UHGV virus genome: UHGV-0145327
Strand: one strand, 5' to 3'
From: a virus
Length of the DNA stretch: 35,087 nt
The notes beneath the pieces were generated by a model. It was not told the origin of the DNA. It was given only the letters and a program-made list of their open reading frames with translations, and made no database searches. Every line of letters starts with the position of its first letter. Within the stretch, counting starts at the first letter, position 1. Positions 2,066-2,221 of this stretch are shown here, piece by piece. Both the position numbers and the translations under genes were made by a program.

Positions 2066-2160
2066 AATGCAAGCACCTTTGCTGTGATGTATGCTTGCAT
2101 TATATACACTGTACACACATACAAGCAAGCATAAAGCTAAAACAAAATGCTTGCATTACA
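2066..2160. promoter_or_regulatory. Divergent intergenic region with repeated ATGCTTGCAT / ATGCAAGCA motifs (candidate operator sites)
   Basis: ATGCAAGCA at 2067-2075 (inverted copy), ATGCTTGCAT at 2091-2100, CAAGCAAGCAT at 2122-2132, ATGCTTGCAT at 2147-2156, all between the start codons of two divergent genes. Confidence 0.4.
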
Positions 2161-2221
2161 ACCGCGCTACTCCAACTACACATTATCATCTGGTATCCTG
2201 CTCAAAACTAAGGAGGTTGGC

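Follow-up and report, generated by a model that had tools for sequence, protein, structure and literature searches.

An operator-like array of four decamers at the promoter of a P63C-domain gene in P22-like prophages and other mobile elements

A stretch of 35,087 bp of viral DNA (UHGV-0145327; the whole of it is referred to here as the window) contains two divergent genes separated by 156 bp of intergenic sequence in which a short palindrome recurs, and the questions that this locus raises are what these repeats are for, which of the two genes they belong to and which protein, if any, reads them. The window is of the P22-like type (Lederbergvirus; CUS-3/HK620-type), an E. coli prophage that is here read in reverse, and the features discussed below are collected in Table 1. 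An earlier note on this DNA had correctly placed the region 2066-2221 between the two divergent start codons and its positions for ATGCTTGCAT (2091-2100 and 2147-2156) and for ATGCAAGCA (2067-2075; 2067-2076 when the following C is included) are all exact. The further 'partial' copy that it gave at 2122-2132 is present, but is better read as AAGCAAGCAT at 2123-2132, with one mismatch to the near-palindrome ATGCWWGCAT of which all four are copies.

Table 1. Coordinates of the features discussed (positions in the window, unless a locus is named)
Feature	Position	Strand	Remarks
Tailspike N-terminus	1-695	minus	
mnt	830-1081	plus	Arc and Mnt Pfam domains (PF03869, PF11423)
Intrinsic terminator of the P63C transcript	1063-1092	minus	hairpin followed by U6; -16.2 kcal/mol, z-score -3.8
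P63C-domain gene, 322 aa	1097-2065	minus	presumed autoregulator; PF10546, phrog_2384
Intergenic region with the array	2066-2221		156 bp, between minus-strand ATG (2065-2063) and plus-strand GTG (2222)
Site 4	2067-2076	minus	plus strand ATGCAAGCAC, gene strand GTGCTTGCAT; between Shine-Dalgarno AAGG (2079->2076) and ATG (2065->2063)
Site 3	2091-2100	minus	plus strand ATGCTTGCAT, gene strand ATGCAAGCAT; spans the -10 hexamer to the inferred transcription start (~2092)
-10 hexamer TATAAT of the P63C promoter	2099-2104	minus (2104->2099)	its final AT also opens site 3
LexA-box-like element	2109-2124		CTGT-ACACACAT-ACAA, in the promoter spacer; candidate optional second control layer, weak in the window
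Site 2	2123-2132	minus	plus strand AAGCAAGCAT, gene strand ATGCTTGCTT; includes the -35 hexamer TTGCTT (2128->2123)
Site 1 (distal)	2147-2156	minus	plus strand ATGCTTGCAT, P63C-gene strand ATGCAAGCAT; ~2 bits/base in 68 non-redundant loci
Constant leader, with ribosome-binding site, ahead of the divergent 'cargo' gene	2184-2221	plus	..ATCATCTGGTATCCTG..AAGGAGGTTGG; outside the operator
129-aa gene	2222-2611	plus	signal-peptide protein, exchangeable neighbour of the cassette; phrog_2651, function unknown, similar to Sf6 gp38
Ejection-protein genes gp16, gp20, gp7	beyond the 129-aa gene		
IS1-family transposon with P63C cassette, L094	246-3286		
IS1-family transposon with P63C cassette, L099	720-3477		
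IS1-family transposon with P63C cassette, L102	1792-4467		
IS1-family transposon with P63C cassette, L113	430-4228		
Small KGG-motif protein, L094	2968-3261	minus	
Small KGG-motif protein, L113	3920-4198	minus	

The four sites and their promoter

The centres of the four sites are 24, 32 and 24 bp apart. In the direction in which the P63C gene is read, the elements come as site 1 (ATGCAAGCAT), 14 bp, site 2 (ATGCTTGCTT), an 18-bp spacer, TATAAT and site 3 (ATGCAAGCAT), followed by 14 bp that end in the Shine-Dalgarno sequence AAGG, site 4 (GTGCTTGCAT), a single T and the ATG, with the last G of AAGG serving as the first base of site 4. The inverted repeat to which the earlier note assigned 9-bp arms in reality has perfect arms of 12 bp (2064-2075 / 2092-2103). 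Counting the motif elsewhere, which had been proposed as a check, showed that single copies are at chance level, seven matches to ATGCWWGCAT with at most one mismatch being found in the 35,087-bp window against 8.4 expected, with four of the seven lying inside 90 bp. No other exact copy of the decamer and no second four-site arrangement was found in the window, and in the complete genome of the related phage vB_EcoP-611R6 the motif is clustered at the P63C gene and nowhere else. The lack of clustering elsewhere in the window and in the 611R6 genome thus indicates that there is no wider regulon.

The predicted sigma-70 promoter of the P63C gene, as read from the sequence, is TTGCTT-18-TATAAT. 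It was not listed by a consensus promoter scan of the window because its -35 hexamer agrees with the consensus in no more than 3 of 6 bases. Comparison with other P63C loci (68 when near-duplicates are collapsed, see below) reveals that the positions of both hexamers are conserved. The -35 within site 2 is TTGCAT or TTGCAA in other loci and TTGCTT in the window, the spacer between TTGC and the -10 is 16-18 bp in relatives and 18 bp in the window, and the TAnnAT hexamer, the last two bases of which open site 3, carries 1.2-1.5 bits at its 'TA' over the 68 loci. From the conserved hexamers we infer a transcription start on the 3' border of site 3 (~2092), which would give a 5' leader of ~27 nt. 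The P63C gene therefore appears to have its own promoter and, at its other end, has a good intrinsic terminator, so that the unit is self-contained. This terminator, which was absent from the output of the promoter/terminator scan, is compact and bidirectional (CCCACC-tgac-GGTGGG between A and T runs) and is shared back-to-back between the ends of the convergent mnt and P63C genes.

The position of the transcription start bears directly on an alternative in which the inverted repeats would fold into hairpins of RNA (or single-stranded DNA), with sites 3 and 4 pairing to sequester the start codon and so control translation, and sites 1 and 2 pairing into an insulator or terminator. The 12-bp arms would give a hairpin of -16.5 kcal/mol ending at the AUG, and site 4 does always lie between the Shine-Dalgarno sequence and the AUG, but this hairpin could form only if transcription began within or upstream of the -10 hexamer, that is at least 12 nt further upstream, whereas the hexamers put the predicted start at the 3' edge of site 3, which would leave the 5' arm untranscribed, and the predicted leader folds into no stable structure (-4.6 kcal/mol, z-score +1.2). 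Among the P63C loci, partner sites are complementary no more often than by chance from the third position past the cores onward, there is no compensatory covariation, and where sites 1 and 3 have changed they have done so in parallel (GCAGGC in locus L083, GCTAGC in locus L146) with sites 2 and 4 uncompensated. Furthermore, the same sequence is found at all four sites, which a purely structural constraint would not need, and a scan of 1800-2500 against Rfam with permissive filters yielded nothing better than E = 0.09, all matches being far below the gathering scores; these were dismissed as sub-threshold miRNA/snoRNA noise. Regulation by hairpins is thus quite improbable. The combination of invariant decamers, free spacers and pairing that stops at the decamer edge favours protein sites on double-stranded DNA over RNA hairpins, and it is very probable, as judged from the sequence comparisons, that the decamers are functional protein-binding operators of the P63C promoter.

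The promoter spacer may hold a second control element. Of 25 enteric-type loci, 11 have a sequence YTGT-N8-ACAG at this place, compared to none of 43 others. The version in the window is weak and scores 10.3 bits, compared to 14 - 16.7 bits in relatives, on a position weight matrix (PWM) made from known LexA boxes, which themselves score 13.2 - 27.2 bits. The decamers themselves do not fit the LexA box (CTGT-N8-ACAG). A LexA-like layer at this position should be regarded as a lead and not as a result. The top match to the same matrix in the whole window is TATTGTGGATATAACCAGTA (767-786, 16.6 bits), which directly follows a Mnt-type operator palindrome, AGACCAC-A-GTGGTCT, at 752-766, upstream of mnt; this phage is without arc and ant.

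Conservation of the array and its ownership

Loci containing P63C homologues at 40 - 100% identity were collected from viruses (75) and from one-genome-per-species contigs (79), the sources including Klebsiella, Yersinia, Rahnella, Burkholderia, Rhodanobacter, Magnetospirillum, Myxococcus, Acidobacteriota, Oscillospiraceae, Heliobacteriaceae and Abditibacteriaceae. An array was defined as the cores GCAAGC / GCTTGC / GCAAGC / GCTTGC, placed 22-25, 30-33 and 22-25 bp apart and ending 6-9 nt before the P63C start codon, and the window fits this definition with spacings of 24/32/24 and no core mismatches. The four-core architecture, in the same order and orientation, was found in 117 of ~150 P63C loci (68 after near-duplicates were collapsed), which are distributed over Enterobacterales, other Proteobacteria, Acidobacteriota, Firmicutes and Myxococcus. 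The core-to-core spacings stay within these limits in all loci but one, and the start codon lies 6-9 nt past the GCTTGC core in 67 of the 68. Over the non-redundant loci the decamers carry ~2 bits/base and the spacers ~0 - 0.4 bits. Part of this cross-phylum conservation may reflect horizontal spread by a transposon (see below) and not independent retention, but invariant decamers set against free spacers show constraint even with horizontal spread.

It could be argued that the repeats are a chance or compositional feature, or are mere promoter hexamers, and the chance frequency of one-mismatch singles in the window would be in keeping with this. However, four of the seven singles crowd into 90 bp, the four-site architecture was not found in any of 6036 control segments taken from the same loci, and sites 1 and 4, which have no promoter role, nevertheless hold ~2 bits/base over phyla. 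This explanation has hardly any probability left to it and can be regarded as already refuted by the comparative data.

The array is kept in varied neighbourhoods: in some loci it follows terminators or a tRNA gene, and in others it lies within the P22 immI region or beside an IS1-family transposase. The only constant neighbour is the P63C gene. The reverse test gave a corresponding result. An exact-pattern scan of IMG/VR for ATGCAAGCAT-N12-16-ATGCTTGC returned at least 120 stretches and, among the matches listed, 72 of the 80 loci examined adjoin a P63C gene (69 by HMM search, two edge-cut loci and one deletion variant), the remaining eight being isolated single site pairs, a number which, on a rough estimate, is of the order expected by chance. 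The earlier note suggested that a dedicated regulator, which might be the 322-aa protein, binds at these repeats, and this gains support from comparison, in which the decamers are almost invariant, the spacers free and P63C the sole constant gene, with the decamers lying over the conserved -35 and -10 hexamers and the translation start region of that gene. Natural deletion variants that keep one site pair only also occur (the L034-L043 group, L070 and L184); sites 1 and 3, or 1 and 4, have apparently recombined with the loss of ~55 bp, which shows that the repeated decamers are themselves probable recombination substrates.

The earlier note had treated the array as lying between two genes, which it does, but it is owned by the P63C gene and not equally by the 129-aa gene. 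Phage vB_EcoP-611R6 matches positions 1067-2224 of the window at 98.3% identity, a segment that comprises the P63C gene and the entire intergenic region, with five substitutions in the 156 bp and none in the decamers, whilst the gene that follows the shared segment differs from the 129-aa gene. Phage Emek matches from 2184 onward only, that is the 129-aa gene and its leader, and its upstream sequence is different. Because both matches break at the module boundary, the array can be assigned to the P63C gene. Similarly, 66 of 5426 complete E. coli genomes have the region, each time beside a gene annotated as P63C, and ~290 further E. coli genomes have the 3' leader part only, without P63C. In related prophages this leader (ATCATCTGGTATCCTG..CAAAACTAAGGAGGTTGG followed by GTG or ATG) stands ahead of at least ten different ORFs of 62-164 aa, mostly encoding membrane or secreted proteins, with the P63C array nearly always just upstream; the leader and ORF look like an exchange slot for accessory 'cargo' genes.

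Candidate binders and a proposed mechanism

The 322-aa protein contains a P63C domain (PF10546; 52.7 bits against a cut-off of 26.1, residues 199-286), belongs to phrog_2384 (E = 1.7e-104) and has at least 1682 homologues at E <= 1e-5. The domain reportedly goes back to a 2002 survey of domain shuffling by Iyer, Koonin and Aravind. Papers searchable in PubMed Central and bioRxiv gave no DNA target, operator or function for P63C proteins. A basic N-terminal KGG...ARW motif (residues 10-38), in which G13 G14 R17 ... R37 W38 are invariant, is followed by an alpha/beta domain (43-150) and a helical C-terminal part with the P63C domain. An AlphaFold2 model of the protein has a mean pLDDT of 80.6, with moderate confidence for the N-terminal helices (residues 11-38, pLDDT ~60-73). 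No solved structural homologue of the model was found, and matches to the predicted viral protein structures of BFVD, which involve the alpha/beta domain, are weak, the similarity in fold being below significance (best E-value 1.6e-3, TM-score <= 0.5), but are enriched in Ant-N, Bro-N and 'repressor domain' models. No PADLOC model matched either this protein or the 129-aa protein.

The N-terminal motif and the array tend to go together. Four homologues without the KGG...ARW N-terminus (L135, L136, L142 and L149) have 0-1 cores and no array, a negative class that consists of four loci only which are not phylogenetically independent, the motif having been scored by the presence of 'RW' and by eye. 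In an Acidobacteria subgroup, whose N-terminus has an insertion following the RW, the palindrome is a different one, CTCGGGCAAGTA. In a group of recombinants (L071-L078) the first 39 residues are unchanged and all four cores are present upstream, with the rest of the protein being only 54% identical. There are P63C subfamilies with upstream palindromes that differ from the array (L097, L101, L103, L108, L110, L115, L118, L125 and L143, and also L084 and L152), either TATACTTGCYCGGGCA ... CTCGGGCAAGTATA around a TTGACT/TATAGC promoter or ATGCTAAGCAT / TGTCAAGCA, and the variant-palindrome subfamilies have altered N-termini (LSxLGAAKGGEARA and an RWxKAGKxPxP insertion).

Outside the enteric bacteria the P63C cassette is found as cargo of an IS1-family transposon with perfect inverted repeats, GGTAGTGTCTCAGTTTGA, at its ends (L094, which is a Rhodanobacter element, L099, L102 and L113). 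The P63C-carrying transposon was encountered in Gamma- and Alphaproteobacteria and in Binatia, and that of L113 also has a toxin-antitoxin-like gene pair. In the window neither a transposase nor these inverted repeats, even at three mismatches, could be found. Of 43 non-enteric loci, 17 have a full-length divergent DDE_Tnp_IS1 transposase (PF03400), ~5 have fragments and 17 have none, the count excluding antisense ORFs that run over the conserved operator; in transposon loci the transposase diverges from the same array, with mirror-image promoter-like hexamers. A small protein with the same KGG...RW motif lies at the far end of the element, and at least 11 loci, L094 and L113 among them, encode such small proteins (~92-97 aa) that end in ...KGGxARAKKLTAEERSxIAKKAAKxRW. 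These have no Pfam family (best match HTH_32, E = 0.05), but since the same motif is found in them and in the P63C N-terminus, the KGG...RW motif may be suggested to be an autonomous, probably nucleic-acid-binding, module.

These transposon loci raise the alternative of a binder other than P63C, which might be the N-terminal HTH of the IS1-family transposase, the small KGG-motif protein, a host transcription factor, or another phage repressor such as Mnt or C2. The full-length transposase is divergent from the array in the 17 non-enteric loci, the small KGG...RW protein is often near the array, and IS1 InsA is known to repress from a site that overlaps its own promoter. Against this, the candidates are encoded neither in the window nor in the 25 non-redundant enteric-type loci, all of which lack the transposase and have unrelated upstream neighbours (terminators, a tRNA gene, the P22 immI region), yet the array is intact there, and it is difficult to envisage a host factor with an identical 10-bp specificity in Firmicutes, Acidobacteriota and Proteobacteria. 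Another binder is therefore unlikely. Mnt and C2 were rejected, as the Mnt palindrome at 752-766 is unrelated and the motif occurs nowhere else in the phage, the immunity region included. Two host factors were considered and rejected as well: CytR (GTTGCATT-like octamers), because the array is conserved in phyla without that factor, and CRP (TGTGA at 2083-2087), because TGTGA is not conserved even in 611R6 and the array is present in phyla without CRP. It is rather likely that the P63C protein is itself the binder of the decamers.

Even with P63C as the binder, the array might primarily be a functional DNA target and not an operator of transcription: it could resemble an origin or a partition site, control transposition, or be a switch that works in both directions and also drives the neighbouring cargo or transposase gene. 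The array is dyad-symmetric, many non-enteric loci have a mirror -35 (TTGCAT, in site 3) and a -10-like nATAAT/AACAAT abutting site 2 that face the transposase, and in P22-like prophages the small membrane ORFs behind the constant leader lie beside it. However, the leftward -10 of the window (CATACA) is degenerate, a search for a sigma-70 promoter toward the 129-aa gene found none, most other enteric loci have a terminator and not a divergent gene upstream of site 1, and there are neither iteron-like direct repeats nor replication genes nearby. Such a role as the primary one is accordingly very unlikely, and repression by P63C of its own promoter via the four sites is the reading that is probably correct on the basis of sequence comparison.

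In the mechanism proposed, the P63C protein would bind the four decamers cooperatively, as an oligomer, and shut off its own promoter. Contact with the DNA would probably be made by the helical KGG...ARW segment at the N-terminus, which is basic and invariant, and the Bro-N/Ant-N-like alpha/beta domain may also take part. Occupancy of sites 2 and 3 would occlude RNA polymerase, from the -35 and from the -10 to +1 respectively, whilst the flanking sites 1 and 4 would contribute a roadblock and make binding more cooperative. It counts against this scheme that, at a centre spacing of 24 bp, partner sites face different sides of the helix, an uncommon arrangement in simple dimer-of-dimer operators, as do the poor match of the -35 hexamer to the consensus and the moderate model confidence for the N-terminal helices. 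Together, the predicted promoter, the operators, the ORF and the terminator make up a self-contained cassette that moves among P22-like prophages, other enterobacterial prophages and islands and, outside the enteric bacteria, as IS1-family transposon cargo.

A promoter-embedded operator array with probable autoregulation is a familiar kind of mechanism. The operator, its near-identity across phyla and the link to P63C are, though, absent from Rfam and from the searchable papers, and, as cis-regulatory sites tend to diverge fast, an operator kept nearly base-for-base over phyla is out of the ordinary. The P63C domain (PF10546) is found widely in phages and mobile elements, and a precise 10-bp recognition sequence in a fixed geometry at the gene's own promoter offers the first directly testable molecular hypothesis for the family, that of a DNA-binding autoregulator. 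In IS1-family transposons the cassette may control the transposase, and in P22-like prophages it flanks a hot spot at which small membrane genes are swapped behind a constant leader, which is relevant to the carriage and control of accessory or exclusion genes by prophages. A broader proposal, which is put forward tentatively and may well prove wrong, is that P63C proteins constitute an unrecognised class of sequence-specific DNA-binding autoregulators in which the KGG...ARW module reads ATGCAAGCAT, forming a mobile control cassette near-unchanged over phyla that gates the transposase in IS1-family transposons and, from its position beside the small membrane 'cargo' slot of P22-like prophages, may control the cargo too.

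Comparison with known systems

One comparison is with P22 immI, where the ribbon-helix-helix proteins Mnt and Arc act on O_mnt and O_arc between the divergent promoters P_ant and P_mnt. The neighbourhood is the same, with mnt adjacent to the P63C gene in the window, and both systems have short palindromic operators lying over promoter hexamers in a compact arrangement suited to tight repression of a phage accessory gene. They differ in the operator, which is the 752-766 palindrome in the one case and ATGCWWGCAT in the other, in the number of sites (one or two adjacent half-site pairs, compared to four sites at 24/32/24 bp) and in the presumed binder, P63C being a protein of 322 aa that, unlike Mnt and Arc, has no ribbon-helix-helix domain. 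The lambdoid operators O_R and O_L, bound by CI and Cro (C2 in P22), resemble the array in that several near-identical pseudo-palindromes lie over the -35 and -10, and cooperative occupancy and negative autoregulation would be expected in both. However, lambdoid operators are 17-18 bp long, are adjacent, are bound by helix-turn-helix dimers and vary by immunity type, whereas the P63C sites are 10 bp long, widely spaced and near-identical over phyla; the P63C gene is not an immunity repressor and, unlike in lambdoid systems, there is no other copy of the array in the phage.

A likeness to regulators of the Bro-N, KilA-N and Ant type lies in the weakly Ant-N/Bro-N-like alpha/beta domain of P63C and in the location of the gene, at a locus that is home to antirepressors. 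Inverted repeats in the promoter are also a feature of autoregulated defence or toxin-antitoxin cassettes, such as those with BrxR/CapW-type regulators, and the P63C unit resembles them in being a self-contained mobile-element cassette, with its own promoter and terminator, beside exchangeable small membrane 'effector' genes; it differs in that P63C has no WYL or helix-turn-helix domain and no PADLOC match. Finally, IS1 InsA autoregulates at the left terminal inverted repeat. The P63C array is internal to the element and not within the terminal inverted repeats GGTAGTGTCTCAGTTTGA, and is kept where the transposase is absent, but in non-enteric cassettes it occupies the upstream region of an IS1-family transposase (PF03400), and the analogy with InsA suggests that element-encoded repression of transposase transcription may take place there.
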